From the sequence record OQ411014.1: 64,000 nt of DNA. The stretch is one strand, 5' to 3'. The DNA is from Escherichia phage EJP2. The position numbers and the translations under genes were made by a program. The stretch's first letter is position 1, and the number at the start of each line of letters is the position of its first letter. Positions 4,737 through 59,354 of this stretch are shown here, piece by piece. Under the pieces are notes generated by a model. The model was not told where the DNA came from and ran no database searches. It saw only the letters and a program-made list of their open reading frames with translations.

Positions 4737-4737
4737 T

Positions 4738-4767
4738 TTGAGCATTCATAAAAAAATGTGATATAAT
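4738..4767 (+). promoter_or_regulatory. sigma70-type promoter driving RNA locus A
   Basis: TTGAGC (4738-4743), 18-nt spacer, TGTGaTATAAT (-10 hexamer 4762-4767); same architecture as the promoter at 58672. Confidence 0.65.
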
Positions 4768-4773
4768 TAGTAC

Positions 4774-5312
4774 TACGGATGGTTAGCTATCCGTATTTTA
4801 AATTTGAATGACCAGTACTACATACTGGTACGTTTTAACCCTGATTCACTCGAAAATGTAGAGGACAGTTGAGTACGCATTCAAGTACGTTCAGCAGAAG
4901 AAACCCGTTAGGTGTAGGCATAGTTTGTACCTCCCACGGCAATGTGGCTGATTAAACCATGAAGAGTAATACGATGACTCATGGCTTGCTTATGGCATGA
5001 TAGACATATAAGGATCGCTCCTTACCAAAATGTATAAGGGAATCTTATAAATTTTTGTAGGACTGATTAGAGGCTTACCCTTGATCCGTCCAAAATTTGA
5101 AGATACAGTACAGTACTGTTTATGTGGTAATGTATTGATGCGTGCTAAGACCACGACCGTTGCATAGAAACGCGATAGGAAGAAACAGGGCAACCCGCTT
5201 CCGTTCTTAATAGAAATTCGTAACATAAAATGATGACACATACCAGCGTCAAACTTTGTTCTTCCCTCCCTGTGGGGGGATGAAAATGAATCTACAAAAC
5301 CTCGTCAAATAA
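4774..5312 (+). ncRNA. candidate novel structured ncRNA, copy A (ends approximate)
   Basis: About 740 nt without a credible ORF and GC-richer than the flanks. Shares ordered blocks with 58708-59229, e.g. CCTGATYCACTCGAAAATGTAGAGGRCAG at 27/29 identity, GAAACCCGT, CACGACCGTTG, TACCAGCGTCA, CCCTCCC-tgt-GGGGGGA and ACCTCGTCAA. Hairpin GGAAG-15 nt-CTTCC (5178-5202) covaries with GCTGG-15 nt-CCAGC in copy B. Confidence 0.6.
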
Positions 5313-5324
5313 TAATAAGAAAGT

Positions 5325-5456
5325 ACTAAATCAATTAGAACGAACGCTAGTGAGTGATAATTGATTTAGTAACAGTAACGCTTCGCTAGAAGTGTTACTC
5401 GTTGTTTAAGAATAAAATAACTTAGTGAGTTTTGGTTCTTTTGTTGTTCACTAAGT
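5325..5456 (+). other. three strong stem-loops between RNA locus A and the next gene
   Basis: 12-bp stem 5325-5336/5359-5370; about 11-bp stem 5374-5399 with a GCTA loop; 9-bp stem 5420-5428/5448-5456; none followed by a U tract. Confidence 0.5.
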
Positions 5457-5476
5457 CCCTATAGAGAGAATATTAG

Positions 5477-5998
5477 ATGCCAGTGAAATATAAATCCCTT
5501 GATGGTGTTGTGAAGTACAAAGATCAAATGACTGAACAGGAATTACAAGAGTTCAGTGGGTACAAAATCGAGGGCAGTGCGGCACGTATTTCATACATTG
5601 AAGAGTACAAAGACGGAGATTTACTAGGGAAAATTATCCTTAGAATGACAAAAGCCCCAATCATATTTCGGGTAGTATACAAGGGATATAATGAAATTCG
5701 GTACAATACTGGAAGTGTTTCATCTAGATATTGCAGTAATGGTGATGTTTTTTGTGGTGAAATGCTGAGATATGATATGAATGGGAAGCTACAGGTTCGG
5801 GACTTTTTGAATCTAGGCAAGAACGTAACTGATGATATTGTTACTGAATTTGGTATCTCTGATATACTACAGCATGAATTTACAGAAGAAGAGTTATTCC
5901 GACTCTATATGAAATACGATTCAGGATTTAGATTCGTATCGGAATATAATAGAACTCCTGAACACTTCGATTCAGTACTGAAGGCGTGTTTGGAATAA
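5477..5998 (+). CDS. hypothetical protein (173 aa)
   Basis: ORF track; weak RBS. Confidence 0.65.
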   Translation: MPVKYKSLDGVVKYKDQMTEQELQEFSGYKIEGSAARISYIEEYKDGDLLGKIILRMTKAPIIFRVVYKGYNEIRYNTGSVSSRYCSNGDVFCGEMLRYDMNGKLQVRDFLNLGKNVTDDIVTEFGISDILQHEFTEEELFRLYMKYDSGFRFVSEYNRTPEHFDSVLKACLE

Positions 5999-6013
5999 TA
6001 GGATATACAATTC

Positions 6014-6532
6014 ATGGATGATAAAAAATCAAAGATGGATATACACTTTTCATCTAAAGCTCAAACTTGGAATACTCCAAGAGATTTATGGAATAAAATA
6101 AATGCAGTATGGAAGTTCACTCTAGATGCTGCGTGTTTAGAAAATAGTGCCTTGTGCGAAAAGTACTTCACTCCTGAAGACGATTCATTAGAACAGGACT
6201 GGGGTGATAACATAGTATGGCTTAACCCACCCTATAACGACCTCAAGACTTGGCTATCGAAGGCAGTACAGGAATATAAGAAAGGCTCTACAGTTGTCAT
6301 TCTGGTCCCTTCTAGGACGGATACAAAGGCATTCCAGGACTATGCTTCTAAAGAATGTTCGTGTATTTGTTTTATTAAGGGAAGACTCAAGTTCTTTGAT
6401 CCAGCTAGACCACCTGATGCGAGGGCAGACCCAGCACCATTCCCTAGCTGTTTGATAGTACTGGATGATGATCTTACACAAGAGAAAATCGATTTTCTAA
6501 AAACTCTAGGTCAGGTAATGAAGAATGTCTAA
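6014..6532 (+). CDS. DNA N6-adenine methyltransferase (phage Dam-type)
   Basis: HFSSKAQTWNTPRDLW N-terminus, catalytic NPPY (VWLNPPYND), LVPSRTDT, RLKF, APFPS; pattern of the phage N6A methylase family. Confidence 0.85.
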   Translation: MDDKKSKMDIHFSSKAQTWNTPRDLWNKINAVWKFTLDAACLENSALCEKYFTPEDDSLEQDWGDNIVWLNPPYNDLKTWLSKAVQEYKKGSTVVILVPSRTDTKAFQDYASKECSCICFIKGRLKFFDPARPPDARADPAPFPSCLIVLDDDLTQEKIDFLKTLGQVMKNV

Positions 6533-7064
6533 ACGCTGTGTCTTTATGTTCGGCAGAATGAACCCGTGCCACCTCGGACACGGGAAAGTATTTGAAAAAG
6601 CACTACAACTAAAGGATAATGAAACTGATGTGAAGTTGTTCCTTAGTGCTTCGTTTGATCCTAAAAAGAATCCACTACCAAGAGAAGTTCGTCAGTACTA
6701 CATATCTGAGTTCTTCCCTGAAATAAAAGATTCTATACAAGATACAAACATAAACAATTTATTTGATATAATGAAATCACTTGATACTTATTATAGTGAT
6801 GTAATATTCGTAGGTGGTTCAGACAGGGCGAGTTCCTTCCAAGAACTACTACTGAAGTACAATAACAAACAGTACTCATTCGATTCTATCAGTACTGTAC
6901 TAGCTGGAACATCAAGAGAAGAATCTATGTTCAGTTCTACTCTAATGCGTAATGCAGTACAGAAGGACGATTTCAGTACTTTCAAGATATGTCTCCCTGG
7001 GGATAATGAATACTTGAAGTACGATATGTTCGCTGGTGTAAAGAAGTACATGAAAAATATTTGA
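6525..7064 (+). CDS. HxGH-motif nucleotidyltransferase (cytidylyl/adenylyltransferase family)
   Basis: N-terminal FGRMNPCHLGHGKVFEKAL, i.e. the (H/T)xGH signature; substrate unknown. Confidence 0.55.
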   Translation: MSKRCVFMFGRMNPCHLGHGKVFEKALQLKDNETDVKLFLSASFDPKKNPLPREVRQYYISEFFPEIKDSIQDTNINNLFDIMKSLDTYYSDVIFVGGSDRASSFQELLLKYNNKQYSFDSISTVLAGTSREESMFSSTLMRNAVQKDDFSTFKICLPGDNEYLKYDMFAGVKKYMKNI

Positions 7065-7089
7065 CACCTATCTATAGCCATGATACTAT
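7061..7089 (+). promoter_or_regulatory. sigma70-type promoter
   Basis: TTGACA (7061-7066), 17-nt spacer, TGaTACTAT (7084-7089), ahead of ATG 7124. Confidence 0.55.
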
Positions 7090-7123
7090 ATGTACATGGC
7101 TATTTCTATATGAAGGTACTATA

Positions 7124-7678
7124 ATGAAAGCAAAAGATCTGTTTGATATGGTTCACTCCAATCGTAAGCACCAATTGAATATTAATAGATCATTCAAGTT
7201 TGGTCACATGGATGTTACATATATAAAGTCATTTGGTTCTGATTTATTCTTGGTTGAGCTTGCTCAAGCTGGTAAATCTAAACGAGTATGTGAAATAATC
7301 TATTGTCCTCTCGAAGAAGAAAATGATACTTATGTTCCAGTTAAAGTATTTGATACTAAAGTCAAATTATCCAAGACTGAAATTGAGTTTGGTTTTCCGG
7401 TGGATGAAAAATTGAAGGATACAATTCGGTTTGTTCCGACTGATTTCAAAACTCCAGCATTTGATATAGACTTCAGTACTGAAGAATCGGCTTCACAAGC
7501 TATGTTCATTCATGATTTCGACCCCAAGAACTGTGAGTACCTAATGGCGGCTACACGTGCATTACAAGAAGTGTACCACCAGCCTGGATATGGGTACATG
7601 ATTATTTCGAGTACTTCTCCGGCATTACTGTGTGATGTACTAGGGATTGAAGTCCAAGTAGGAGTATACAATGCGTGA
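7124..7678 (+). CDS. FQAS-motif paralogue family member
   Basis: Start moved from 7061 (TTG, inside the promoter) to ATG 7124, giving MKAKDLFDMV; C-terminal motif EESASQAMFIHDFDPKNCEYL. Confidence 0.7.
   Translation: MKAKDLFDMVHSNRKHQLNINRSFKFGHMDVTYIKSFGSDLFLVELAQAGKSKRVCEIIYCPLEEENDTYVPVKVFDTKVKLSKTEIEFGFPVDEKLKDTIRFVPTDFKTPAFDIDFSTEESASQAMFIHDFDPKNCEYLMAATRALQEVYHQPGYGYMIISSTSPALLCDVLGIEVQVGVYNA
7471..7484. repeat. example of the over-represented AGTACT palindrome (14-bp perfect palindrome)
   Basis: CTTCAGTACTGAAG; one of several hundred AGTACT-centred sites (27 counted by hand in bases 1-6000). Confidence 0.9.
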
Positions 7679-8222
7679 TAAAGTTCAACACATATTGAAT
7701 TGTATGCAGAAGAAAGTTCACGTTCAGAATGATGTACTTGATATGCAAGTATATACAATTCTATCTTCAGAAGATGGCGTGTTTAGTTCAACTATTCGAT
7801 GCCGCAATAAAAATAGCGGTTCCTTTACTATTATGCTAAGGAAGAAGACTGAAATGATTACTGCTCCTAGTTCAGTACTGGGACAAAACGACACATACAA
7901 TACAGTTTACACTTCTCTTGCAATGAAGATGGCAATCTTCTGTACGCATGGTAATCCCCTACACATTGTTCGTGGGGATAGTACAATAGGTGATGATGTC
8001 GTTCAGGATTTGAGTGACGAAGGTTTCTTTCGCTTGTTATTGGCAGTTGACCCGAAGTATAATATCGATATAGATGGGTACAAGCAGGTTCTTGAAATGA
8101 TTTATGCATTCGAAGAAGTAGTACCTGAAGATTGGACTATTGTTATTAGCTCACCATTAGATAATTTACATTCAATAGATGTTGATTCTATCTATTCAGT
8201 ACTGAAGGATGTCGTAGTATGA
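7671..8222 (+). CDS. FQAS-motif family member (divergent)
   Basis: 8-nt overlap with upstream gene; SDEGFFRLLLAVDPKYNIDIDGY sits where the family motif occurs. Confidence 0.65.
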   Translation: MRDKVQHILNCMQKKVHVQNDVLDMQVYTILSSEDGVFSSTIRCRNKNSGSFTIMLRKKTEMITAPSSVLGQNDTYNTVYTSLAMKMAIFCTHGNPLHIVRGDSTIGDDVVQDLSDEGFFRLLLAVDPKYNIDIDGYKQVLEMIYAFEEVVPEDWTIVISSPLDNLHSIDVDSIYSVLKDVVV

Positions 8223-8788
8223 ATGCCGCAGAGTTTGTTAGAGCACTTGTTGGTTTAGCTAAAGTGAAAACTTATAGAGGAAATATCACTAAATCAAATT
8301 CGCATTTTGTTCCACGTAATGGTCGTGAACATCTATTCGTTGATTCATTACTCATCAAGGGTATCGATGCATATGAAGAAATATACATTTCTATAGATAT
8401 GTGTGATGGATTCTTGAATTCCATTGCAGTTCATACAAGAAATAGATATACTCATTTCTCTATGTACAGAAAAACGGCATACACAGAGTATGATAAGTAC
8501 GCAATGGAAGAAACCTCCCCAGGGCGTTTCCTTATGCTTTTTCACAATGAAATTACCGAGCGTGATTTAATCATGAATCACAAGGGTGAATTTATTGTGC
8601 ACATGGACAATGAAAGTGAAGTGTTCAGTACTTTATTAGTACATAACTTCGATATAGAAAAGTACAGAGAAATTCATGAAACCTATAAGTGCATTGATGA
8701 ACTTAAAACTGACCTCTCATTCAGTACATATGATACTAATTGTGGTCTGAATTTCGCAGCACTATATCAAATTATATGGAAGGCATAA
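8219..8788 (+). CDS. FQAS-motif family member
   Basis: ATGA overlap; motif ESEVFSTLLVHNFDIEKYREI. Confidence 0.7.
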   Translation: MNAAEFVRALVGLAKVKTYRGNITKSNSHFVPRNGREHLFVDSLLIKGIDAYEEIYISIDMCDGFLNSIAVHTRNRYTHFSMYRKTAYTEYDKYAMEETSPGRFLMLFHNEITERDLIMNHKGEFIVHMDNESEVFSTLLVHNFDIEKYREIHETYKCIDELKTDLSFSTYDTNCGLNFAALYQIIWKA

Positions 8789-9309
8789 TGACTGCACTAA
8801 ATGATTTCATGACTCTCAGTACTGAAATAGTATCTTCTACAAAGGGAGAAATCACAATCCCCCGTGATGATGTATATATTATACTAACACCAGGAATAGC
8901 AGAGTCCATAAAAGTATACGAAAATAATGATTCTTTACAAGTACTGTACATGCCACAAGATTATCTTTTTGTAAATTCTGATTTTACTTTACATCAATTT
9001 CCTACGTATAGTAATTTTCAACAACGTTTCCCAAGTGATAAAACAAAAGAAATAAAATACGTACAGTACGATAATAGTTTTAAAAGTCGTACTCATTTTA
9101 TCGCTTTAGAAACTGAAGAAGATATATTCAATGCTATGATAGTACATTCATTTGATATAAACGCAGCACTAGAATTGATGAGTGTATTGACTGAAGTACC
9201 GGAAGATGTAACAGGTATTATTACTATAAGAACTAAGTACAATGAAGAATTGTTACTAAAGTGCAACAGTATGATGCGAGATTATATTAGTAATAAGGAA
9301 AACACATGA
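8788..9309 (+). CDS. FQAS-motif family member
   Basis: Start taken at TAATG overlap (MTALNDFMTL); motif EEDIFNAMIVHSFDINAALEL; close paralogue of 9306..9836. Confidence 0.7.
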   Translation: MTALNDFMTLSTEIVSSTKGEITIPRDDVYIILTPGIAESIKVYENNDSLQVLYMPQDYLFVNSDFTLHQFPTYSNFQQRFPSDKTKEIKYVQYDNSFKSRTHFIALETEEDIFNAMIVHSFDINAALELMSVLTEVPEDVTGIITIRTKYNEELLLKCNSMMRDYISNKENT

Positions 9310-9836
9310 CAGTACTGAATGATTTTCTTAGAGATAGTAAGTACATTATTGATAATATTGCTGAAGAAATATCTATACCATCAATGGATGAGTTGATGAT
9401 GATATCAATGGACCCTGATGGTGGGTTGGTAAAAGTATATTACGATTTTGAACTGCACGTAATGTTCATGAAAAATCATTATGAACACGCTTCTGATATG
9501 TTGACACTTTATGATTTTGGGACGCATAAAAATTACCAACAACGTTTACCAGCAAACAAATCAAAGGATATGAAACTAAGTGTTTACAATTCTGCTGGTG
9601 TTACTATTCCGACTAAGATTTCTCTTGGTTCTGAAGAGGGAATCTTTTCTGCGGAATTAGTACATGATTCCAGTACTGAAGAAGCACTTGAAGTTATGCA
9701 AGTAATTTCTGAAGTACCTGACAGTACCAAAGGAATACTTACTATAAGAAATAAGTACAACGAACGATTACTTATAAAATGTAATGTGTTATTAGAACAA
9801 TATATACATGGAGTACTGAATGCAAATATGGTATAA
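9306..9836 (+). CDS. FQAS-motif family member
   Basis: ATGA overlap; MTVLNDFLRD; motif EEGIFSAELVHDSSTEEALEV; tail ILTIRNKYNERLLIKCN matches IITIRTKYNEELLLKCN of the upstream gene. Confidence 0.7.
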   Translation: MTVLNDFLRDSKYIIDNIAEEISIPSMDELMMISMDPDGGLVKVYYDFELHVMFMKNHYEHASDMLTLYDFGTHKNYQQRLPANKSKDMKLSVYNSAGVTIPTKISLGSEEGIFSAELVHDSSTEEALEVMQVISEVPDSTKGILTIRNKYNERLLIKCNVLLEQYIHGVLNANMV

Positions 9837-10113
9837 TGTAGTACAGAAGGATTGGGATGATAATGAAAAGACAGGGATGCGTTTCATTTCTGTTATCATT
9901 TCGAATGAAACTCGTTATGTTCTACGAGCGGATAAGAATGATGGCGTATGGGAATCATCTTTGTATCCAATGGGTTACAAATATTCTTTAGATGATGTTG
10001 CAAGTCTAGCTGATTCTATGATAGACTCAGTAAAGATTATGAAGTTCCTTGAACGTCCAGAGCTAACAACGGCTGATGATGTACAGGAATTTTTGGCGAC
10101 TTTACAAGGGTAA
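9820..10113 (+). CDS. hypothetical protein (97 aa)
   Basis: ORF track; overlaps upstream gene end. Confidence 0.6.
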   Translation: MQIWYNVVQKDWDDNEKTGMRFISVIISNETRYVLRADKNDGVWESSLYPMGYKYSLDDVASLADSMIDSVKIMKFLERPELTTADDVQEFLATLQG

Positions 10114-10115
10114 TT

Positions 10116-10634
10116 ATGAAACTTTCTGACTTCATTGCACGCAAAGATTCGTTCAAAAATGGCGTTTTTCATCAAGTAGAAGGTACTGACTTTACATATA
10201 TCAGTACTAGTATTGGATTGGGAGAAGCATCGAGTATCGTATCTTTTTATACAAAAGAAACACTTGCTATATGTGATTTTGTATTTTCAACTAAACATTA
10301 TAATACCACAGACAATGCAATTATGTTCGATGCAAACTCAGTGAATGATGCTTGGTGTGTATATTTTTCTTATCCAAATACAAATGAAAATATAGTATTA
10401 TTCTTGGATGATTCAGAAGATAACGAGCCACCAGTACTGGTAGATATCTCATCAGAAGCGGATATCTTCACTAAAGCAGTAGCATTCGATATAAATTGTG
10501 ATGGTATTGAAGAGTACATTTCGATTTCCAAAGCAATCGAAAAAATTGCCAAGGATTTGGGATTACCGGAATTTACTCTAGAACTTCGTCACAATAAACT
10601 GAAGGAATTTCTTGAGATATTTGAACTATGCTAA
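10116..10634 (+). CDS. FQAS-motif family member
   Basis: MKLSDFIARK; motif EADIFTKAVAFDINCDGIEEY. Confidence 0.65.
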   Translation: MKLSDFIARKDSFKNGVFHQVEGTDFTYISTSIGLGEASSIVSFYTKETLAICDFVFSTKHYNTTDNAIMFDANSVNDAWCVYFSYPNTNENIVLFLDDSEDNEPPVLVDISSEADIFTKAVAFDINCDGIEEYISISKAIEKIAKDLGLPEFTLELRHNKLKEFLEIFELC

Positions 10635-11724: not shown

Positions 11725-11890
11725 TAAAGGTGAAGAGGAAGTCTTCTGTACTGCGTGCAATCTGTACGTACAACCTGAATACAGTTCGTACTCATGTATT
11801 TCACAGTACGGTTCATCAGTGTTCTGTAAAGAACTCTGTCCTATTTGTTATAAACAATTTCGGGAATTTTTAGTCGATGCAGACATTTGA
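11717..11890 (+). CDS. small zinc-ribbon protein, 57 aa (below ORF-track cutoff), TRASH/FCS-like C-x2-C-x22-C-x3-C
   Basis: MNDKGEEEVFCTACNLYVQPEYSSYSCISQYGSSVFCKELCPICYKQFREFLVDADI; fills an otherwise unexplained gap; overlaps both neighbours by a few nt. Confidence 0.5.
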   Translation: MNDKGEEEVFCTACNLYVQPEYSSYSCISQYGSSVFCKELCPICYKQFREFLVDADI

Positions 11891-12566
11891 TAATTCAATC
11901 AACATCAGTACTGAACTATTAAAAGTACTAAAAGTGATTTATAGTTTCAGTACTGAAGAGTTGTTGAAAGTACTACCAGAGAGTGTATCTAAACGAGAAA
12001 ACGAATATAAGTGCGTTTTTGATATACAACAAGATGTACAATTTCAAGTTCAAATTAACTACAAAGACGATTTGAATTATCGCAGTACTAATATTTCCAT
12101 TCTTGATGTGCGTCGCGGCGTAACAATGAATGGGACAATTCCATGTATCTTAGCTTTAGGTACATACGCAGCGAATAAATCAGAACCATCTATCATTTGT
12201 AACTACTCCCAAAGTAAAGAATTTATGGTTCGATATCATTCATTGACCGAAAATCCTGCTTATACAAATGTCAGTACTGATGGCAATTCACTTAGAATGA
12301 ATCGAATCAAGTACTACGAGATTGATGATATTTTTGATGAAGGTGCAGTATTCCAACATTCAATTATGCATGAGTTCGACCCTAATAGTATTCTGTTATT
12401 ACAGAAGATGGTCACTGTTGGGGATTACATCAGTACTAAATGTAATTCCAATAAAATCCTTGTCTCGGCTGATGAAGATAAGTTAGATGGTCTGTTGGAT
12501 TCACTTCTAAAGATTGATGTTGTTAGTAAATTCATTTCCTTATATGAAGGTACAGAATGGTCATAG
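11877..12566 (+). CDS. FQAS-motif family member
   Basis: Motif EGAVFQHSIMHEFDPNSILLL. Confidence 0.7.
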   Translation: MQTFDNSINISTELLKVLKVIYSFSTEELLKVLPESVSKRENEYKCVFDIQQDVQFQVQINYKDDLNYRSTNISILDVRRGVTMNGTIPCILALGTYAANKSEPSIICNYSQSKEFMVRYHSLTENPAYTNVSTDGNSLRMNRIKYYEIDDIFDEGAVFQHSIMHEFDPNSILLLQKMVTVGDYISTKCNSNKILVSADEDKLDGLLDSLLKIDVVSKFISLYEGTEWS

Positions 12567-13180
12567 CCAATAAAGGTTTAGAAATCATTGAAATTGCACC
12601 GGATGAAGTTCAAATGGAAGTTGAAGTAATGTATCCGTGCAACATTGAACAGTACTGCAAACAGGGATTACAGTACTTAGAAGAAATGCAAGTACTACTT
12701 GATTCTCCTGATTGTATCGATAATTATACCAAATACACAACTGTAACCAGAACTACACCAGAATTGGAATTGATTGGTATTCGATATTGCAACACACGTC
12801 TCCCATCAATTATTACTACAGTTAAATTTACTGAAGTAATGTTGCTGGAAACATTTAGATGGCCTAAAACGTTACAAAGTCATTTCAATTCAATACGTTT
12901 TGGTGAAGATGAATACATTATCATGTGTGAAGATCCTAAGTCCTACAAATATGTAGTGATGGTCGAGCAAGATGAAGTATGCACAATTGAAGATATCAGA
13001 GACGAAAGTTCTTTATTTCAGGCTTCATTAGTTTCTGAATTAGATCCGTGTATACAGGAGTATCTCATCAAACATCACGAACTGTACTTGCGTGCAATTA
13101 GTAATGAGAACAAAGAGATTACTACTCTATGTACTACTCTGGCAGGTGGTGATTACTACGCAGAGAGGCAGTACTTATGA
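12557..13180 (+). CDS. FQAS-motif family member
   Basis: Motif ESSLFQASLVSELDPCIQEYL. Confidence 0.7.
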   Translation: MVIANKGLEIIEIAPDEVQMEVEVMYPCNIEQYCKQGLQYLEEMQVLLDSPDCIDNYTKYTTVTRTTPELELIGIRYCNTRLPSIITTVKFTEVMLLETFRWPKTLQSHFNSIRFGEDEYIIMCEDPKSYKYVVMVEQDEVCTIEDIRDESSLFQASLVSELDPCIQEYLIKHHELYLRAISNENKEITTLCTTLAGGDYYAERQYL

Positions 13181-15727: not shown

Positions 15728-16866
15728 TGACTACAATGCGTGAACTATATGACGATTTGAATGCATTAGTATCTGATGCTTTCTATCACAAAGATTTCGT
15801 TAGTAAAGGCTCTGGTACGTACCGGATTTTCTCGTACCGTCTAGCGAGTGCTGCTGACTTCGAAGAACGTAATGCCCTTGAGTCACGTGGTATTATGTTC
15901 GAGATTGATGCAGATACTAAAGAGCCAATTCGTATTGCTTCTCGGACTATGAAGAAGTTTTTCAATGCAGGGGAAACCCAAGAATTACAGTTCAAGAAGG
16001 ACGTACCATTCAGTACTATCAAGTGCGTAATGCCTAAGTTGGATGGTTCTGTTATTGCAACCTTCATGGACAATGATGGAATTATTCGTACTAAATCAAA
16101 CTCTTCGTTGGAGTCTGAGCACGCGTATTACAGTACTGAAATGATTCACGCCAATGATAAGTTACACGATGCAATCATTTGTGCTGAAGCTGCTGGTTAT
16201 ACTGTAATTATGGAATTTACTTCACCTGAGTACCGGATTATTCTTCCTTACCAGAAAGATGAACTAACTGTATTGCGTATCATTCATCGTGAAAGTGGTG
16301 AAAGCATTATGGGTTCTGACTTGAAGGAGAAGTTCCCAGTACTGTATGAGTTTTCGGTATTTGGTGATAAAGACATTCATGAATCATTCCCTGTTCGCAG
16401 TACTTTAGTACAGAGTATTGCTGCTGTTCGTGAAATGGAAGAGATTGAGGGATATGTTGTAGTACTACAAGATGGCACTACATTCAAGCTCAAGACGGAT
16501 TGGTATTGCAATTTACATTTTACCAAAGATAGTATTATCATTGATTCTCGACTATTCAAGGCAGTACTGGATGGTAGTTCAGATGATTTACGTCAATTGT
16601 TTGAAAATGATGAATATGCACTAAAAAAAGTCGAAAAAATGGAAAATTTGATTTTTTTGTGCTATAATAAGTTAGAAGAGGATGTGACTACTTTTTACGA
16701 AAAGTACAAGCACCTTGATCAAAAAACGTATGCTATGAAGGTGTTGGGTGAATTATCGAAAGATATGAACCGACAAGGACTTGCATTCAACTTGTACAAT
16801 GGTAAACCTGTTGATTACAAAGAAGTACTACTAAAGTACATGAAGAACGTGTTAGAAGGATTCTGA
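15727..16866 (+). CDS. rnlA: RNA ligase 1 (T4 RnlA-like)
   Basis: N-terminus GTYRIFSYRLAS...RGIMFEID...PIRIASRTMKKFFN parallels T4 Rnl1; nucleotidyl-transfer motif I KLDGS; about 379 aa, as in T4 Rnl1. Confidence 0.9.
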   Translation: MTTMRELYDDLNALVSDAFYHKDFVSKGSGTYRIFSYRLASAADFEERNALESRGIMFEIDADTKEPIRIASRTMKKFFNAGETQELQFKKDVPFSTIKCVMPKLDGSVIATFMDNDGIIRTKSNSSLESEHAYYSTEMIHANDKLHDAIICAEAAGYTVIMEFTSPEYRIILPYQKDELTVLRIIHRESGESIMGSDLKEKFPVLYEFSVFGDKDIHESFPVRSTLVQSIAAVREMEEIEGYVVVLQDGTTFKLKTDWYCNLHFTKDSIIIDSRLFKAVLDGSSDDLRQLFENDEYALKKVEKMENLIFLCYNKLEEDVTTFYEKYKHLDQKTYAMKVLGELSKDMNRQGLAFNLYNGKPVDYKEVLLKYMKNVLEGF

Positions 16867-23863: not shown

Positions 23864-23891
23864 TTGACAATCTAGAATAATGTGGTATAAT
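23864..23891 (+). promoter_or_regulatory. sigma70-type early promoter
   Basis: TTGACA (23864-23869), 16-nt spacer, TGgTATAAT (23886-23891). Confidence 0.7.
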
Positions 23892-34788: not shown

Positions 34789-35391
34789 ATGACTTGTATT
34801 ATCGCTTTTACTGATGGTAAATCATCCTTCATCGCAGGTGACAAACTAGGTTCCAACGGCTTTACTAAATCAGTAATGGTTGAACCAAAAGTCTTTGAGA
34901 AAGAGTTTCATCGTGTTAGTACCAATGATGAAGGTACTGTGCGGACGCGTGAAACGATGGCACTCGGTTATACTACGTCATTTCGTATGGGACAACTTCT
35001 GTCTTACAATCTAGTACTGCCTGACCAAGATGCGAATCAATCCTTCAGTCAGTACCTGGTTCAGAAAGTAATTCCACTTATTCGTCATATGTTCAAAGAT
35101 GAATGGGGTGCACGTGATAGCTCACAAGATATTGGTGGTGGTCAGTTCATTATTCTGCATAACCACACTATCTACGAAGTTCAAGGTGACTTCTCAGTAC
35201 TGCAACCTAAGACACAAATTACTGCTGTAGGTTCAGGTACTTACCATGCAATTGCAGCTATGCAAGCACTACAAAGTGTTTCATCTGATACTAAGAAAGA
35301 TCTACTACATTACGTACCAACGATTTTTGATATTGTCAGTACTAATGTAACTTCAGTATCTGCTGAACATGATGTATTGCATTACAAATAA
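34789..35391 (+). CDS. Ntn hydrolase, proteasome beta/HslV-like
   Basis: MTCIIAFTDGKSSFIAGDKLGSNG: Thr2 would be exposed as the N-terminal nucleophile; parallels HslV TTIVSVRRNGHVVIAGDGQ. Confidence 0.6.
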   Translation: MTCIIAFTDGKSSFIAGDKLGSNGFTKSVMVEPKVFEKEFHRVSTNDEGTVRTRETMALGYTTSFRMGQLLSYNLVLPDQDANQSFSQYLVQKVIPLIRHMFKDEWGARDSSQDIGGGQFIILHNHTIYEVQGDFSVLQPKTQITAVGSGTYHAIAAMQALQSVSSDTKKDLLHYVPTIFDIVSTNVTSVSAEHDVLHYK

Positions 35392-35582
35392 TGGTTGATA
35401 TATTTTTCATTGTAATGATGATGCTTGGTGTATTCGGGTTGATTGCAATTACCCGAATCACTGATAGACCATACACAGATAACATTGAACGCGTTTGTAT
35501 GTTTCTACTAAGTACTATAATGTTGGTTATCGTTGGTGTAGTAGGTTCTATGTTTGCAGAACTAATTCTAATTGCGTACTGA
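35391..35582 (+). CDS. small membrane protein (63 aa)
   Basis: Two TM helices; TAATG overlap. Confidence 0.6.
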   Translation: MVDIFFIVMMMLGVFGLIAITRITDRPYTDNIERVCMFLLSTIMLVIVGVVGSMFAELILIAY

Positions 35583-35605
35583 TGTACGCTTTTTAAGGAG
35601 TACTT

Positions 35606-35839
35606 ATGGACTTAGCAGATTTGGTTTATGTTGTATCGTTAGTACTGTACGGTATTTGTATAGTACTGACTATGTTAGAATGGAGTACTTGGAGTGATGG
35701 TTTCAAAGAACTAAATGGTGAGTTTACCTCTAAATACTATGCAATTAGTTATTTTATCATGAAGTTAGGTATGATTGGAATGTATGGTATTTTGGGATAT
35801 CTATTCTACTTCTTACCTGAACATATGAGATTATTTTAG
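35606..35839 (+). CDS. small membrane protein (77 aa)
   Basis: Two TM helices; AAGGAG RBS. Confidence 0.6.
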   Translation: MDLADLVYVVSLVLYGICIVLTMLEWSTWSDGFKELNGEFTSKYYAISYFIMKLGMIGMYGILGYLFYFLPEHMRLF

Positions 35840-35849
35840 GAGATATAAA

Positions 35850-36281
35850 ATGGCAGGAAAAGGATATTGCAGCCTAAAACTTGATAAAGCACAAGCAAAG
35901 GAATTGAAACGGATTTTAAAAATCGGTGGCGTTGAATGCTTAGACCCTTCGGATTTGCATTGTACTTTAATGTACGATGAAAGTAATCCTAACATCAAAA
36001 TGCTCAAGAACACAAAGACTTATAAAGCTAAAGTAACTGGTGTTAGTAAATTGGGTGATGCGATTGTATTGGATTTGGAATCCCCTGGCATCAAGAAACG
36101 TCATCAGGAATTGAAGAATGCTGGTTATAAGCACTCATTCCCTGAATTGAAAATTCATATGAGCATCAACTACGATCCAAAAAGTACTGATAAGGATTTA
36201 CTAGAACTCTTTATCAAATTGAAGGGTATTCCTTCAGTACTGATATTTGGTAATGAAAAATTTGAATCTCTAAAGCCGTAA
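35850..36281 (+). CDS. 2H phosphoesterase, Acb1-like candidate (anti-cyclic-nucleotide signalling)
   Basis: Two H-x-T/S motifs (LHCTLMY at His37, IHMSINY at His103) 66 residues apart in a 143-aa protein, matching the size and spacing of the T4 Acb1 / LigT-type 2H fold. Confidence 0.5.
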   Translation: MAGKGYCSLKLDKAQAKELKRILKIGGVECLDPSDLHCTLMYDESNPNIKMLKNTKTYKAKVTGVSKLGDAIVLDLESPGIKKRHQELKNAGYKHSFPELKIHMSINYDPKSTDKDLLELFIKLKGIPSVLIFGNEKFESLKP

Positions 36282-36291
36282 GGAGTATATA

Positions 36292-37050
36292 ATGGACGTG
36301 AATAAATTTCTTGACAACAAAGGACAAAAGCGTCTGTTAGTACTAACTGGTGCGGGTTTCAGTGCGGAATCTGGAGTTAGTACATTTCGTGATGCAGAAG
36401 ATGCCCTATGGGAAGGTGTGAAGATTAACGATGTATGTAACATTGCGAGCTTAGGCTTTAAGTACGCACAAGTACATGCATTCTACAACACACTAAGAAC
36501 TATCATCAAGGACAAAGAGCCTAACGAAGCACACTATGAAATTAGCGTTATGGAGTCAATGTACGGGGATAACTTCCTACACATGACTGCTAATATCGAT
36601 GATTTATATGAGCGTGCTGGTGGCACTGCTATGCACCTTCATGGCAACATCAAAGAAGTCATTGAGAACTATTCAATGGCACATAACGACTTTACAGTAC
36701 TGGATGTTGGATATGAAGTTTATATTCCAAAGGAAGGTGTATTTGCTAAACCTAATGTAGTATTCATTGGTGAATCAGAGCGTTATGTGAATAACCAGCG
36801 TATTCCGTTGTATGAAGAACGAAATAAAGTACTGGCATCCTTGACAGACTTAGATACCGTTGTTATCATTGGTTCATCGGATACAATCCTGAAGTGGAGT
36901 TCGTTGGTTGGTTTAGGCACACCAGCTTATACCATCAACATCAACACAAGAAAGAATGACACTGACTGGGCGTTCGATAAGAAGATTTACAAGCCAGTAA
37001 CTAAAGCGTTATTGGAATTGAGGGAGTTAGTTCTTACACGGATGGGATAG
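36292..37050 (+). CDS. Sir2-family NAD-dependent protein (deacylase or ADP-ribosyltransferase), no Zn-ribbon cysteines
   Basis: GAGFSAESGVSTFRD, TANIDDLYERAG, HLHGN, KPNVVFIGE, IIGSSD motifs; no Cys pairs between HLHGN and VVFIGE. Confidence 0.8.
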   Translation: MDVNKFLDNKGQKRLLVLTGAGFSAESGVSTFRDAEDALWEGVKINDVCNIASLGFKYAQVHAFYNTLRTIIKDKEPNEAHYEISVMESMYGDNFLHMTANIDDLYERAGGTAMHLHGNIKEVIENYSMAHNDFTVLDVGYEVYIPKEGVFAKPNVVFIGESERYVNNQRIPLYEERNKVLASLTDLDTVVIIGSSDTILKWSSLVGLGTPAYTININTRKNDTDWAFDKKIYKPVTKALLELRELVLTRMG

Positions 37051-37059
37051 GAGTGAGTT

Positions 37060-37614
37060 ATGGATTTTACAGAGATACCATTCGGACAACGCAGTGAAAG
37101 ATTTGACTGTGCGTTCGTTTGGATCTACGCTAAGAATTGCACACCATACAAGGATTATCCATATAATGATATTCCTAACGTATCTTTAGTACTGACAGAG
37201 TTACGCTTTGATGGTCTAATGGGTGCGGTTGGTGGAGCAGTTGAGGATGATGATCCTTCATTGGAAGTGGCAGTGCAACGTGAAGCCTTAGAGGAAATAA
37301 ACTTTTCTCTTGACATTACTAATCTGAAACCGTTATTATCATTACGTTCCCCATACGGAGCACATAACCATAGTTTCTCGTACGAAGTACAGTACGATGA
37401 GCTACTAGAGATTCGGAACAACGCATACAAAGGTGCTCACTTCAGTGCTGAAAATGCGGGTGTAAATCTGATTCACGTATGTCGCTATACGAAGGGAAGA
37501 GGGAACGAATGTGGTTACAATAACATTCTTACACAGAATTTTATTGGCACATCCAAACTGGAACTAGAGCGTTTAGTTCATAATGAAAATTTACTAATAA
37601 ATTACCTTGCATAA
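37060..37614 (+). CDS. Nudix hydrolase
   Basis: Nudix box GGAVEDDDPSLEVAVQREALEEINF. Confidence 0.75.
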   Translation: MDFTEIPFGQRSERFDCAFVWIYAKNCTPYKDYPYNDIPNVSLVLTELRFDGLMGAVGGAVEDDDPSLEVAVQREALEEINFSLDITNLKPLLSLRSPYGAHNHSFSYEVQYDELLEIRNNAYKGAHFSAENAGVNLIHVCRYTKGRGNECGYNNILTQNFIGTSKLELERLVHNENLLINYLA

Positions 37615-39759: not shown

Positions 39760-39967
39760 GGACAGTACTATGAGTTTAGATTTGAACTTAGTTCGACACG
39801 CACTGTCACGGTTTGATTGGGCTGATACATTATTTTCGTTAGCTGAACAATCATTATCAACGGTTCCGGCTGATAACACTGACAGGCTTAAGCGTTTGTC
39901 GTTGTTATACAAAACACAAGCCTTAGTGAATCATGACAGAATTTTGAATAGAAGAAAAATGTTATAA
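39758..39967 (+). CDS. hypothetical protein (about 65-69 aa)
   Basis: ORF track; start may be ATG 39770. Confidence 0.45.
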   Translation: MDSTMSLDLNLVRHALSRFDWADTLFSLAEQSLSTVPADNTDRLKRLSLLYKTQALVNHDRILNRRKML

Positions 39968-39971
39968 ATTA

Positions 39972-40001
39972 TTGAGACAAAACTCAATACTATGATATAA
40001 T
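39972..40001 (+). promoter_or_regulatory. sigma70-type early promoter
   Basis: TTGAGA (39972-39977), 18-nt spacer, TGaTATAAT (39996-40001). Confidence 0.7.
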
Positions 40002-55021: not shown

Positions 55022-55333
55022 ATGCAATACAGAACACCAGTACTGATCAATCGATACAAAAGTAAAGACTTTGATGTTTACATTGGTCGTGGGACAAAAT
55101 GGGGAAACCCGTTCCCAATCGATGAAGCATGTGGTCAAACTCGCCTAATCGTTATTGAAATGTACAGACACCAAATGTATGAATGGCTAGAAAATGGAAC
55201 CATCACTGTTCAGGATATTTTGGATTTATCGGGAAAAACCATTGCATGTTCTTGTGCACCAAAGGCATGTCATGGAGATATAATCATAGAGGTATTCAAT
55301 GAAATAGTGAGTATGATGAATGCAGGAACATAA
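55022..55333 (+). CDS. DUF4326-family protein
   Basis: DVYIGRGTKWGNPF ... GKTIACSCAPKACHGDII, the family-typical pattern. Confidence 0.7.
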   Translation: MQYRTPVLINRYKSKDFDVYIGRGTKWGNPFPIDEACGQTRLIVIEMYRHQMYEWLENGTITVQDILDLSGKTIACSCAPKACHGDIIIEVFNEIVSMMNAGT

Positions 55334-58671: not shown

Positions 58672-58701
58672 TTGAGATGAATGAAAATTTTGTGATATAA
58701 T
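58672..58701 (+). promoter_or_regulatory. sigma70-type promoter driving RNA locus B
   Basis: TTGAGA (58672-58677), 18-nt spacer, TGTGaTATAAT (58696-58701); the TGTGATATAAT string is identical to that at 4757-4767. Confidence 0.65.
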
Positions 58702-58707
58702 GTATAG

Positions 58708-59229
58708 TACGGATAACACCTATGTTGAATGTCTTTGATAAACAGAACCTGATCCACTCGAAAATGTAGAGGGCAGATGAGTAGAACATTCACTACGAAG
58801 TGCAAATGAAACCCGTCAGTAATAAAGCGTAAGTGCGGTCATACAAACGAGACGTAAGACACACGCGACACGGCAAAGCGGCACTATAAAAGCGATAAGA
58901 AAACATATTCGCTCTTGATAGACTTATGAGGCATACTCACCCAGTTGAAAGGGAGTCTCTTTACGGAGAGACAGCAGTATTTGTTGCTGAATTAGCAAGT
59001 ACTGTAAGCGTGTGAGGAACACGACCGTTGTATGCAGACTGTAGTAGCTGGAAACAGGACAACCCGCCAGCGTTGCTACTTTTATTTGTACGGGAAAGAT
59101 CCGTCCAAAAAGTAGTGAATCTACAAATTCAGATTGGTAAGACTACCAGCGTCAGGATATTCCTGATTTTTTTTCGGCCCTCCCTTGTGGGGGGATGGAA
59201 TTGGATCAACAAACCTCGTCAAGTATAAT
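58708..59229 (+). ncRNA. candidate novel structured ncRNA, copy B (ends approximate)
   Basis: About 690-nt ORF-free gap. Shares conserved blocks with copy A (58748-58776, 58808-58816, 59020-59030, 59144-59154, 59178-59195, 59213-59222). Hairpin GCTGG-AAACAGGACAACCCG-CCAGC (59047-59071) covaries with copy A. Confidence 0.6.
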
Positions 59230-59261
59230 ATGAATAGTATTAGTACTTAATAATTCAAATG

Positions 59262-59332: not shown

Positions 59333-59354
59333 CGAAACATTACAGGAGCTTATC

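Follow-up and report, generated by a model that had tools for sequence, protein, structure and literature searches.

The ORF-free locus, its paralogue and the wider family

Within the window, the 64,000-nucleotide stretch of Escherichia phage EJP2 DNA that was analyzed (sequence record OQ411014.1), one ORF stops at position 4736 and the following ORF begins at 5477. A first-pass annotation, prepared from sequence alone, had described the intervening gap (copy A, 4738-5476) as ORF-free and as opening with a near-consensus promoter, and both claims held. The only ORF of at least 50 amino acids within the gap is antisense (4990-5241 on the minus strand, 83 aa). The plus-strand promoter (4738-4767, TTGAGC-N18-TATAAT, 10/12 matches) comprises a -35-like TTGAGC hexamer (4738-4743) and an extended -10 element, TGTGATATAAT (4757-4767), with the upstream TG present; transcription is predicted to start at ~4770-4775, there being no expression data. 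The same annotation had called the element visibly richer in GC than its flanks, which was not confirmed: the effect is weak, the element having a GC content of 0.38-0.40, its closest flanks 0.34-0.38 and a gene lying 1 kb upstream 0.42-0.44. The short blocks that it listed as common to copy A and to a second locus at 58672-59354 (copy B) were all found where it had placed them, with one block, GAATCTACAAA, proving not to be homologous.

Copies A and B are homologous, two paralogous genes of one RNA family. The block CACTCGAAAATGTAGAGG occurs exactly twice in the window against 0.01 occurrences expected; BLASTN of A against B returned three collinear blocks (E values of 2e-13, 3e-12 and 3e-5) together with permuted exact 11-13-mers; and the nhmmer family profile, run across the window, matched only copies A and B (E values of 1e-129 and 3e-124). 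Over aligned columns, the core of B is 58% identical to that of A. Copy B is likewise preceded by a plus-strand promoter (58672-58701, TTGAGA-N18-TATAAT with TG, 11/12 matches), and in the alignment every family member is preceded by a TGnTATAAT box and a TGRRACR -35-like box. In phage CBB, a promoter class with the -35 element TGAAACG has been reported upstream of DNA-synthesis genes (PMC5259590). Downstream of both copies, co-directional genes begin 130-170 nt past the conserved tail, and neither copy has a convincing terminator of its own, bar an internal one in B and a weak one in A.

An nhmmer profile search of fetched loci yielded 92 matches and 59 unique near-full copies, and all 53 genome and metagenome loci derived from pattern searches were true members by this profile. 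The IMG/VR 16-mer and the first gapped pattern had also drawn chance matches in unrelated contigs, which the profile search removed. Seventy phage records carry the element at 4-5 places each. Every Rak2/121Q-like jumbo phage genome examined holds 4-5 copies, on one strand and 44-86 kb apart; 121Q has four copies only, and their spacing is less even. No copy of the RNA was found among PLSDB plasmids, and single copies occur in some Enterobacteriaceae integrative (chromosomal) islands, those of E. coli LR-29-1, where the island adjoins ffs, and Enterobacter chinensis 170198 among them. Among phages, jumbo phage XaC1 gives the best match to the island RNA; the Enterobacter-type island copies are nearest to the jumbo phage paralogue L039/L099 (78%), and that of the E. 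coli island is nearest to the L038 group (76%). These sequence similarities lead us to infer that islands captured the RNA from two different phage paralogue lineages. One such island carries KwaB of the Kiwa defence system.

Covariation and architecture of the RNA

A structure model of 96 base pairs was scored on 52 sequences (~26 effective) drawn from one phage clade plus the islands; some covariation counts are inflated because these sequences are related. Pairing across the model reached 94.5%, shuffles giving 76.1% and slid controls 36-44%. The covariation score was 0.504 against 0.173 and 0.06-0.11, respectively, and compensatory double changes were present at 61 of the 96 pairs; none of 500 shuffles reached any of the five measures. 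The top MI-APC pairs were mostly Watson-Crick, with 3-6 pair types each, and the folding z-score was -2.7. Unconstrained RNAalifold on the whole core missed the long-range pairs, which were supplied by mutual information. The core that emerges, 440-620 nt in length, has at least 16 helices, ~110 invariant nucleotides and four long-range/pseudoknot pairings, among them a 100% paired 7-bp helix between a loop and a strand.

This family-wide covariation supports the first-pass inference that selection acts on RNA structure and not on a protein. The pairings on which that inference had rested fared unevenly. The helix GGAAG/CUUCC (5178-5182/5198-5202) held, being 100% paired in the 52 sequences with 3/5 pairs double-changed, and the helix GUAC/GUAC (4873-4876/4885-4888) held for its three outer pairs, which are 100% paired and occur as GUA/UAC, GCA/UGC, GAA/UUC and GUU/AAC variants. 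A proposed pairing of ACGGAU (4775-4780) with AUCCGU (5084-5089) failed, as 56% of cells pair against 57% in shuffles and there is no covariation; ACGGAUGG instead pairs locally with CUAUCCGU. The block GAATCTACAAA corresponds in copy B to the 3' strand of P13 plus a pseudoknot partner, and its equivalent in copy A is AAUUCGUAACAUAAA at 5215-5229. Two other candidate pairings were rejected: tail CUCGUC with the conserved GAUGAG, which are complementary in most copies with variants that alignment inspection showed to be uncompensated, and the pyrimidine run before P17 with GAAGAAAC, which is inconsistent among paralogues.

Each gene consists of its own promoter, usually a 5' hairpin, the core, a terminator-like hairpin in about half of the aligned copies, a hairpin with an invariant G-run, a second motif and a less conserved 3' extension. 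In copy A, where all features lie on the plus strand, the 5'-terminal hairpin ACGGAUGG-UUAG-CUAUCCGU (4774-4795) is a 9-pair stem (MFE); in the alignment, most paralogues carry a hairpin of different sequence at the same 5' position, for example GGACAGCAC...GUGUUGUCC. The 5' domain (4804-4888) follows and contains P2, P2a, P3 and P4, with MI pairs at 4874-4887, 4849-4863 and 4846-4865. P2 joins UUGAAUG (4804-4810) to CAUUCAA (4878-4884) in the P4 loop and is 74% paired in the majority register, from which copy A is shifted by one column; the CAUUCA loop sequence is conserved because it pairs with this upstream UGAAUG. P2a is a hairpin at 4811-4829, P3 (4841-4868, 97% paired) presents the conserved loop GAAAAUGUA, and P4 is the GUAC/GUAC helix described above. 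P5 (UCAGC/GCUGA, 4891-4895/4947-4951, 100% paired, three pairs double-changed) delimits a region (4891-4951) with the invariant strings GAAACCCGU and CACGGCAAUG, and encloses P6 (CCGU/ACGG, 4905-4908/4936-4939, 99.5% paired) and the variable hairpin P7.

The central domain (4942-5034) is built from the P8 hairpin (4957-4961/4991-4995), the P9 hairpin (5009-5024) and two of the long-range pairings: PK-b, a pseudoknot between the P8 loop (4970-4972) and 5032-5034, and PK-d, between AUG at 4942-4944 and CAU at 5005-5007. It includes the invariant GAUAGA and AAGGGA; helices 6, 7 and 8 of the model are here 100%, 94% (5/5 pairs double-changed) and 98.6% (3/3) paired, and helix 10 lies in the same domain. 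The P10 subdomain (5042-5104), closed by AUCU/AGAU and 98% paired, holds a movable module (...GAUCCGUCCAAAAUUUG) that in copy B and several other paralogues resides inside the P15 hairpin (alignment columns 346-427 versus 547-585). P11 (5106-5137) is a 12-bp hairpin, 95% paired, with 12/12 pairs double-changed. Its loop (UUUAUGU, 5119-5125) forms PK-a with ACAUAAA at 5223-5229, all seven pairs of which are double-changed (100% paired, at most four pair types).

The PK-a partner strand belongs to the core junction (5141-5229), the helices of which are 94-100% paired: P12 (5141-5144/5152-5155), P13 (5171-5175/5218-5222), P14 (the GGAAG/CUUCC helix) and P15 (5204-5207/5212-5215), together with PK-c, in which GUUGC at 5159-5163, part of the invariant ACGACCGUUG, pairs with GCAAC at 5190-5194 in the P14 loop. 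The top MI pair, 5173-5220, falls here (CG in 27 sequences, UA in 20, AU in 5), as does 5163-5190 (CG in 38, UA in 13). The 3' part of the core (5235-5308) comprises the weak hairpin P16 (5235-5250), which carries motif 1, ACCAGCGUCAA, then the pyrimidine run, P17 (CCUCCC/GGGGGG, 5265-5270/5274-5279, 95.5% paired) with its invariant G-run, and a tail with motif 2, ACCUCGUCAA (5299-5308). The 3' extension (5309-5455) runs to the next gene, and its membership of the mature RNA is unestablished. It contains hairpins at 5328-5367, with the semi-conserved loop GAACGAACGCUAGUGAGU, and at 5421-5455, separated by the weak terminator-like hairpin (5374-5399). RAYGAACGnnAGUGAR is present in the 3' extension of most aligned copies, islands included; RNAalifold returned no consensus for this poorly aligned extension.

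The core of copy B (58707-59222, plus strand) is formed from the same helices with compensatory changes, such as GCUGG/CCAGC (59047-59051/59067-59071) at the position of P14, and has its GAUCCGUCC module relocated into P15 (59098-59110). Between motif 1 and P17 it possesses an intrinsic-terminator-like hairpin, GUCAGGAUAUUCCUGAU plus a U-run (59151-59175, plus strand). This hairpin occurs in roughly half of the aligned copies, with equivalents in L071 and 121Q and none in copy A, and its stem covaries (GGCAC/GUGCU, GAUCC/GGGUC, GUACC/GGUAC and GAGAC/GUCUC; alignment columns 630-665). The plus-strand 3' extension of copy B (59223-59332) is assigned tentatively, with similar hairpins in other copies; as read from the sequence, GAAUUGAGA (59261-59269) may pair with UCUCAAUUC (59303-59311), and a possible hairpin UUGGCUUAC-GCA-GUAAGCCAA (59312-59332) is followed by an RBS and the ATG at 59355.

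The motif AYC(N)NCGUCAR is present twice per RNA, as motifs 1 and 2, and the two copies co-evolve in parallel (52/52 concordant). Their Y positions (5243 and 5300) are U:U in 31 of 52 sequences and C:C in the other 21, without exception, and paralogues that have UGUCA in place of CGUCA have it in both motifs.

Coding potential, known RNA families and gene context

In the closest orthologues (L001, L081, L018 and L115), stops and frameshifts interrupt the 83-aa antisense ORF of copy A. Across 52 copies no conserved ORF was found, and the longest open stretches, with a median of 78 aa, lie in differing frames and strands. A mini-ORF after the G-run was rejected as coding: a start codon is usual, but the frame varies by copy and the substitutions are not biased towards synonymous ones. 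Several GenBank records, that of Hallingskeid among them, annotate 3-5 small hypothetical proteins across the RNA. We regard these annotations as spurious; the annotated small ORFs are antisense and not conserved.

The family matches no Rfam 15 model. A scan of the whole window at gathering thresholds, extending a check that the first-pass annotation had proposed for the two loci and covering GOLLD, ROOL, HEARO, OLE, raiA, 6S, phi29 pRNA and riboswitches among other families, returned 0 matches. At E <=10, the two loci and an island copy gave chance-level matches only (13-21 bits against thresholds of 40-95), none of them to RNase P RNA; on 10 further copy-bearing loci, the only matches were SRP RNA and tRNAs elsewhere in those loci. 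No tRNA or tmRNA was detected in the window by ARAGORN, and the Rfam tmRNA models were likewise silent. A group I/II intron was rejected in the absence of both an Rfam intron match and an interrupted gene, since the stop at 4736 is followed by the promoter and the next ORF, at 5477, has its own RBS. No description of the RNA was found in the literature searched, which did not cover a 2026 preprint on genome-language-model ncRNA mining; a jumbo-phage review has no ncRNA section, and the Sharanji and UE-S1 papers contain no transcript data. What we describe is a large ncRNA family that meets the criteria of a descriptive class, the large ornate phage-borne ncRNAs: more than 400 nt, many covarying helices, pseudoknots among them, no ORF, and carriage by phages or integrated elements.

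The first-pass annotation had left open whether copy A is a new large ncRNA or a long structured leader, and of these two the stand-alone ncRNA is favoured. Two lines of evidence argue that this is an RNA gene and not merely a leader: i) class C paralogues (L071, 121Q copy 4 and UE-S1), whose downstream genes are on the opposite strand, are stand-alone units, and ii) the island copies are flanked by a serine integrase gene on one side and a convergent cI-like repressor gene on the other. L071 consists of a promoter, a ~680-nt unit and a bidirectional terminator set between two minus-strand ORFs; copy 4 of 121Q has endonuclease VII on one side and gene 595 on the other, both on the minus strand, an arrangement repeated in UE-S1. 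A position upstream of and co-directional with a gene, which a leader or riboswitch would require, is met in copies A and B and not in class C or the islands. A leader role for A and B is not excluded, because both run into co-directional genes. Elements that could make up an expression platform are the terminator-like hairpin of about half of the aligned copies and P17, which pairs a CCUCC-like strand with the G-run; no competing antiterminator pairing was found by alignment inspection. As there are no expression data for any member, the 5' and 3' ends are predictions only.

Competing explanations and relation to known systems

Taken together, it is very likely, though inferred from sequence alone, that the ORF-free gap is a real gene for an intricately folded ncRNA of roughly 0.55-0.7 kb. 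The explanation that we prefer, with moderate confidence, is that copies A and B are genes for a large structured ncRNA acting in trans, its function being inferred only; the product would work as a folded RNA, not as a protein and not merely as an mRNA leader. In this model, host RNA polymerase would transcribe the RNA from sigma-70-type promoters with an extended -10 element, and the folded RNA would form a compact particle whose single partner, either a protein of phage or host or else an RNA, is bound by way of the invariant core and of motifs 1 and 2, which evolve in parallel. This partner is probably important where jumbo phages and their hosts or satellite elements are in conflict, because islands with defence genes captured the RNA from two lineages. 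Besides the absence of expression data, the co-directional genes after A and B and the relatedness of the 52 sequences, three points weigh against this explanation: the conserved P17 and tail lie 3' of the internal terminator-like hairpin, which is awkward if that hairpin sets the 3' end; the regular spacing and common strand of the copies are not accounted for by a trans-acting RNA; and no partner has been identified.

A cis-acting transcription element remains possible, in which the nascent transcript would modify or direct its own polymerase, whether as a processive antitermination signal like HK022 put or as a riboswitch-like attenuator working through the internal terminator, and would control read-through into the long co-directional blocks downstream of each copy. 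In its favour, the RNA always directly follows a strong promoter, about half of the aligned copies have a covarying hairpin and U-run just past the core, the copies recur every 44-86 kb on the strand that bears most genes, A and B precede same-strand genes, and the island RNA points, through the repressor gene, toward a co-directional ner-like gene and a 286-aa ORF. Against it, class C units finish at a bidirectional terminator with genes on the opposite strand beyond it, conserved elements continue past the terminator-like hairpin, alignment inspection found no alternative pairing that competes with it, and the common orientation of the four 121Q copies is not significant given that ~85% of 121Q genes are on the plus strand. 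A fold of ~500 nt with four pseudoknots is also far larger than any known antitermination RNA. Less probable is an origin-priming RNA that forms a persistent RNA-DNA hybrid like ColE1 RNA II or the T4 middle-promoter origins oriF and oriG, which the islands would have copied for helper replication. The five regularly spaced copies (simulated probability of a minimum gap at least as large as observed, 0.0004-0.05), the resemblance of the promoter to the CBB class upstream of DNA-synthesis genes (PMC5259590), the invariant G-run near the 3' end of the core, stand-alone units that need no downstream gene, the two captures by integrative islands and a T4-like replisome with UvsW, RNase H and gp59/41-type genes all speak for it. 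However, the genomes are syntenic, so that the spacing is essentially one inherited observation, and 121Q departs from it; origins do not need a common orientation; and an R-loop primer has no obvious need of an ornate fold with ~110 invariant positions. The GC skew of 121Q tracks the strand of its genes and has no feature at the copies, as is expected for such phages, and is therefore uninformative.

We consider a ribozyme or self-processing RNA (intron-like, self-cleaving or of new catalysis) very unlikely, while acknowledging that it overlaps with the trans-acting explanation; any activity would be inferred. Dense invariant unpaired nucleotides framed by pseudoknots (ACGACCGUUG, AACAGRNCAACCCGC, GAUAGA and CACGGCAA) are consistent with it, and the RNA is within the size and complexity range of large ribozymes. 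Yet Rfam models of group I/II introns, RNase P and small self-cleaving ribozymes give nothing at E <=10, and no host gene is interrupted, as the upstream ORF has its own stop ahead of the promoter. Least probable is that the locus lacks any RNA function and is instead a repeat acting at the DNA level, such as a site of recombination, an array bound by protein or a regulatory region, or else several small protein genes. The two motifs do evolve in parallel, as iteron-like binding sites would, and on the opposite strand read TTGACG/TTGACA, like a -35 box; small proteins are annotated in Hallingskeid and other records. But the compensatory changes keep 61 of 96 pairs, including pairs ~100 nt apart, which double-stranded DNA sites do not need, a sense-orientation promoter is present at all copies, and the annotated ORFs are antisense and unconserved. 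A bolder reading, which can be entertained without being favoured, takes the five spaced, co-oriented copies as cis genome-management elements, either RNA-primed origins or antitermination entry points, whose activity would depend on the ornate RNA fold and which islands with defence genes such as Kiwa, having captured them from two paralogue lineages, would use to sense, parasitise or jam infecting jumbo phages; if true, no satellite- or decoy-type element directed against Rak2-like phages would precede those islands.

The regular spacing and the capture by islands with defence genes are hints that the RNA serves genome replication or expression, or takes part in the conflict between phage and host. 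Large intricate bacterial and phage RNAs are rare, and each of them (rRNA, RNase P, tmRNA, introns, OLE, GOLLD, ROOL and raiA) has taught new biochemistry or poses an open question. The present RNA is directly open to genetics, being carried by E. coli phages that can be cultured (121Q, PBECO4, Sharanji, UE-S1 and others) and by an E. coli chromosome, and the five natural paralogues per genome, with differing pseudoknot sequences, are built-in compensatory variants. The finding also corrects the annotation of spurious hypothetical proteins in several GenBank records.

Among known systems, the Pseudomonas jumbo phage PA5oct, distantly related to the Rak2 group, likewise has ORF-free loci of a few hundred nucleotides. 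Its ncRNA001 (236 nt) and ncRNA002 (451 nt) were defined by RNA-seq and are highly transcribed, at 1-5% of phage reads each (PMC7318152). They lack a described structure and were rejected as homologues, as nhmmer --max gave only E >3 and none of the invariant strings is present. HK022 put resembles the new RNA in its position directly 3' of a promoter and 5' of a terminator and long co-directional operons; the new RNA is ~7x larger, and some copies have no co-directional downstream gene. ColE1 RNA II, a ~550-nt primer precursor, is likewise a promoter-driven, ORF-free RNA of ~0.5 kb in which the fold matters, with a G-run towards its 3' end and hairpin loops that make 7-bp contacts. The loop contacts of the new RNA are within the same RNA sequence, nothing points to an origin, to an antisense RNA I or to processing by RNase H, tertiary structure and invariance are far greater, and the context is phage and island, not plasmid. 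GOLLD and ROOL are large ornate ncRNAs, often borne by phages or prophages, that form RNA-only multimers (PMC12286853). The new RNA resembles them in its length of several hundred nucleotides, its many helices and pseudoknots, its highly conserved unpaired nucleotides, its carriage by phages and integrated elements, and its lack of an ORF or a known function. It differs in having no sequence or structure match to them (Rfam 15) and in not being adjacent to tRNA genes (in 121Q, 12 kb separate it from the tRNA cluster). To our knowledge, neither GOLLD nor ROOL occurs as 4-5 diverged, regularly spaced paralogues per genome, as the new RNA does. GOLLD and ROOL come from Lactobacillales, rumen and lake samples, whereas the new RNA belongs to Enterobacteriaceae and their jumbo phages.

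Copies A and B and the family they belong to

Both copies open with a plus-strand promoter, TTGAGC-N18-TATAAT with TG ahead of the -10 box in copy A (4738-4767 of 4738-5476) and TTGAGA-N18-TATAAT, likewise with TG, in copy B (58672-58701 of 58672-59354). An 18-mer, CACTCGAAAATGTAGAGG, is present at exactly two places in the 64 kb against an expectation of 0.01. Between the copies, BLASTN recovered three blocks that are collinear (E 2e-13 to 3e-5), together with several exact matches of 11-13 nt whose order is permuted; identity across aligned columns is only 58%. A first-pass annotation had listed short blocks shared by the copies, and every one held at its position. Its description of the copy A region as visibly GC-richer than its flanks fared less well: GC is 0.38-0.40 versus 0.34-0.38 in the nearest flanks, and reaches 0.44 in a gene 1 kb upstream.

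The element was detected by BLASTN in 70 GenBank phage records, at 4-5 places in each. All are jumbo phages of 320-390 kb, with hosts including Escherichia, Klebsiella, Salmonella, Erwinia, Yersinia, Serratia, Cronobacter and Pectobacterium; two were isolated on Xanthomonas. The window is most closely related to Erwinia phage Hallingskeid (82-84% identity). Further copies were retrieved from IMG/VR, metagenomes and bacterial genome assemblies using two DNA patterns built from invariant blocks. An nhmmer profile confirmed 92 matches and showed every one of the 53 loci retrieved by scanning genomes and metagenomes to be a true member. Unique near-full copies number 59 and fall into 16 sequence clusters; the element is 441-620 nt long from predicted start to last conserved block.

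No known RNA family accounts for these copies. Rfam 15 gave no match in the window at gathering thresholds, only chance-level matches at E up to 10 for both loci and one island copy, and no match to the element in ten further copy-bearing loci; ARAGORN found neither tRNA nor tmRNA. A literature search returned no paper describing the RNA, though an earlier description elsewhere is not fully excluded. RNA-seq of PA5oct, a related jumbo phage, has revealed noncoding RNAs (PMC7318152), but they are not homologous to this family. The sense strand of 4737-5476 holds no ORF of at least 50 aa, and the sole antisense one (83 aa, 4990-5241) is interrupted by stops and frameshifts in the nearest orthologues. 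Across 52 aligned copies, the longest open stretches have a median of 78 aa and differ in frame and strand. Some GenBank records place 3-5 small antisense "hypothetical proteins" across the element and others none, and PGAP has no annotation for the E. coli copy. The antisense calls over the RNA in Hallingskeid (five, at 5930-6664 of its fetched locus L001) and 121Q (gene 516, 247,799-247,954) are very likely spurious. Since compensatory changes are present and no frame is conserved, a purely DNA-level or protein-coding reading is very unlikely.

Two other signals recur across the window. Further promoters with this kind of extended -10 box lie at 16658-16668, 23881-23891 and 39991-40001 (TGTGCTATAAT, TGTGGTATAAT and TATGATATAAT); the last, at 39951-40001 in full, has a -35-like box, TTGAGACAAA, shared with RNA promoters of related phages, and no RNA copy lies 3' of it. 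AGTACT occurs 283 times against about 24 expected under a first-order Markov model (for example at 4769-4774, 4815-4820 and 5113-5118), and GTAC 690 times against 246; AGTACT flanks favour the 8-mer palindrome CAGTACTG (C 56%, G 54%). The enrichment does not extend to other palindromes, and AGATCT is rarer than expected (4 versus 23). Because 255 of the 283 AGTACT sites fall within ORFs, the signal is genome-wide rather than intergenic; AGTACT could serve DNA modification, binding or packaging.

A covarying, pseudoknotted fold

The alignment comprised 52 unique cores (about 26 effective sequences), and covarying columns were sought both as compatible stacked pairs and by mutual information with APC correction. 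The best-ranked pairs were mostly Watson-Crick, with 3-6 pair types. The resulting model of 96 pairs, from which variable hairpins misaligned by MAFFT were left out, has 94.5% of cells paired, compared with 76.1% in column shuffles and 36-44% when the 3' partner was slid by 1-3 columns; the corresponding covariation scores are 0.504, 0.173 and 0.06-0.11. Both-sided changes occur in 61 of the 96 pairs, and none of 500 shuffles attained any of five measures.

The helices, all on the plus strand and given at their copy A positions, are P2 (4804-4810/4878-4884), P2a (4811-4829), P3 (4841-4868), P4 (4873-4876/4885-4888), P5 (4891-4895/4947-4951), P6 (4905-4908/4936-4939), P8 (4957-4961/4991-4995), P9 (5009-5024), P10 (5042-5045/5101-5104), P11 (5106-5137), P12 (5141-5155), P13 (5171-5175/5218-5222), P14 (5178-5182/5198-5202), P15 (5204-5215), P16 (5235-5250) and P17 (5265-5279). 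There are four long-range or pseudoknotted pairings: PK-a joins the P11 loop (5119-5125) to 5223-5229 through seven pairs, fully paired in 52/52 sequences and with compensatory changes at every pair; PK-b joins the P8 loop (4970-4972) to 5032-5034; PK-c joins GUUGC (5159-5163) to GCAAC (5190-5194) in the P14 loop; and PK-d joins 4942-4944 to 5005-5007. P2 falls in this category too, pairing the loop of the GUAC/GUAC hairpin with UGAAUG 70 nt upstream. Both helices proposed in the first-pass annotation, GGAAG/CUUCC (P14) and GUAC/GUAC (P4), held on family data; its pairing of the predicted 5' end with the conserved AUCCGU failed, being 56% paired versus 57% in shuffles. Instead, ACGGAUGG pairs locally, making a 5' hairpin. 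Copy A carries the block GAUCCGUCCAAAA in its P10 subdomain, copy B has it within P15, and some copies have it at both sites; it is a module that can move, which accounts for the permuted block order between A and B.

Each RNA has the motif AYC(N)NCGUCAR at two places, in P16 and in the 3' tail. Its Y is U/U or C/C in 52/52 sequences, and a change of CGUCA to UGUCA affects both motifs in the same paralogues. A partner for the motifs sought within the RNA was not found. Because the change is parallel rather than complementary, we infer that both may contact one and the same partner. Between P16 and P17, about half of the aligned copies have a covarying hairpin with 6-8 U after it, as at 59151-59175 (plus strand) in copy B; copy A has none. 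Beyond it lie P17 with an invariant G-run and the tail. The next 100-190 nt form a semi-conserved 3' extension that has 1-2 hairpins and the loop motif RAYGAACGnnAGUGAR; this stretch aligns poorly, and RNAalifold gave no consensus for it.

Genomic settings in jumbo phages and chromosomal islands

Downstream of copies A and B, co-directional genes start at 5477 and 59355, those after copy A including a Dam-type methyltransferase. About ten back-to-back plus-strand ORFs of 170-205 aa occupy 5477-10634, only two with Pfam matches: a Dam N6-adenine methyltransferase (6014-6532) and a cytidylyltransferase-like protein (6525-7064), both plus strand. Genes 417 and 418 of 121Q are the same pair, 3' of the copy orthologous to A.

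A different setting is seen at L071, a locus on the metagenomic jumbo contig Ga0164306, where a promoter (1995-2023), internal hairpin (2455-2472) and bidirectional terminator (2686-2701) are flanked on both sides by minus-strand ORFs. Its 121Q orthologue (326,570-327,261) has endonuclease VII on one side and gene 595 on the other, each on the minus strand, and in UE-S1 an RNA of this paralogue class likewise lies between minus-strand genes. In bacterial genomes the RNA follows a same-strand large serine recombinase gene and precedes a convergent cI-like repressor, itself followed by a ner-like gene and a 286-aa ORF, an order kept in up to eight loci. Since these copies lack a co-directional gene directly 3', we infer that the family is a self-standing RNA gene, though no expression data exist for any member.

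Copy positions were taken from locus coordinates and profile matches. Within each five-copy genome all copies share one strand, at 40.8, 107.6, 187.8, 269.2 and 332.4 kb in Ga0164306 (gaps 63-81 kb); 30.5, 92.9, 174.4, 258.7 and 335.2 kb in Serratia BF (52-84 kb); 24.4, 93.2, 174.2, 260.3 and 334.7 kb in Yersinia fHe-Yen9-04 (44-86 kb); and 63.9, 148.6, 208.0, 257.0 and 338.0 kb in IMG/VR contig 3300042923_000569 (49-85 kb). In simulations for these five-copy genomes, the probability that the minimum gap equals or exceeds the real one is 0.0004-0.02. Five genomes with only four copies caught by the patterns have one gap of 128-146 kb, about twice the usual, and in GAP32 and CBB BLAST placed a B-type copy inside it. 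A whole-genome scan of 121Q gave four copies, at 90.3, 192.7, 247.4 and 326.6 kb (P ~0.05); GC skew there tracks gene strand with no signal at the copies, and nhmmer found no family copy in 2 kb without annotated genes (135,194-137,161; 35194-37161 of locus L133). Because the genomes are syntenic, the regular spacing amounts in essence to a single inherited layout rather than a set of independent cases.

The Enterobacter chinensis element (NZ_JARDVI010000005.1, locus L080 3427-5525) begins with a 563-aa large serine recombinase whose start lies 5 bp from an N-terminally truncated ppdD (prepilin) ORF, and has therefore probably integrated into ppdD. In E. coli LR-29-1, an island of ~10 kb between ffs and ybaA (locus L129, 7753-18303) holds the RNA in full (11875-12598), preceded by the same promoter, along with a tyrosine integrase fragment adjoining an IS3 element, a membrane protein distantly resembling the 286-aa ORF of other islands, and DUF4326, DUF488 and dual-OB-domain genes. 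A 103-aa ORF in the window (55022-55333, plus strand) shares 34% identity with the C-terminal half of the island DUF4326 protein (L129 14997-15590), and also lies ~3 kb upstream of B-type copies in three other loci (L054, L064, L107). A metagenomic island with the RNA and cI-like and ner-like genes (contig ERZ773156 NODE-17, L085 13083-14625) encodes a KwaB-like protein (PF16162, E 7e-38, Pfam); the adjoining ORF is likely KwaA, and if so the two would form a Kiwa anti-phage defence system. Enterobacter-type island copies are nearest the jumbo paralogue lineage L039/L099 (78%) and the E. coli copy nearest the L038 lineage (76%); from these identities we infer that the island copies descend from two separate paralogue lineages. 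The top phage match of the island RNA is jumbo phage XaC1, and PLSDB plasmids held no copy.

Readings of function

Our rankings are only approximate, and one reading overlaps with another. It remains possible that the element acts in cis, in antitermination or attenuation: this would account for the promoter-proximal position, internal terminator and dispersed co-oriented copies, but leaves copies without downstream co-directional genes unexplained. Ranked lower is an RNA that primes an origin, which would account for the spacing, the G-run and copying by integrative elements, and fits a promoter class linked to DNA-synthesis genes in the CBB paper (PMC5259590); no direct evidence supports it, and we consider it unlikely.

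The reading we favour as best supported, with moderate confidence, is a trans-acting folded RNA, a ribozyme variant included, which would contact its partner via the invariant core and the two co-evolving motifs; function and binding alike are inferred. This preference rests on the stand-alone units, the ornate fold with ~110 invariant positions, the island copies of two lineages, and the analogy of the family to GOLLD and ROOL (PMC12286853).
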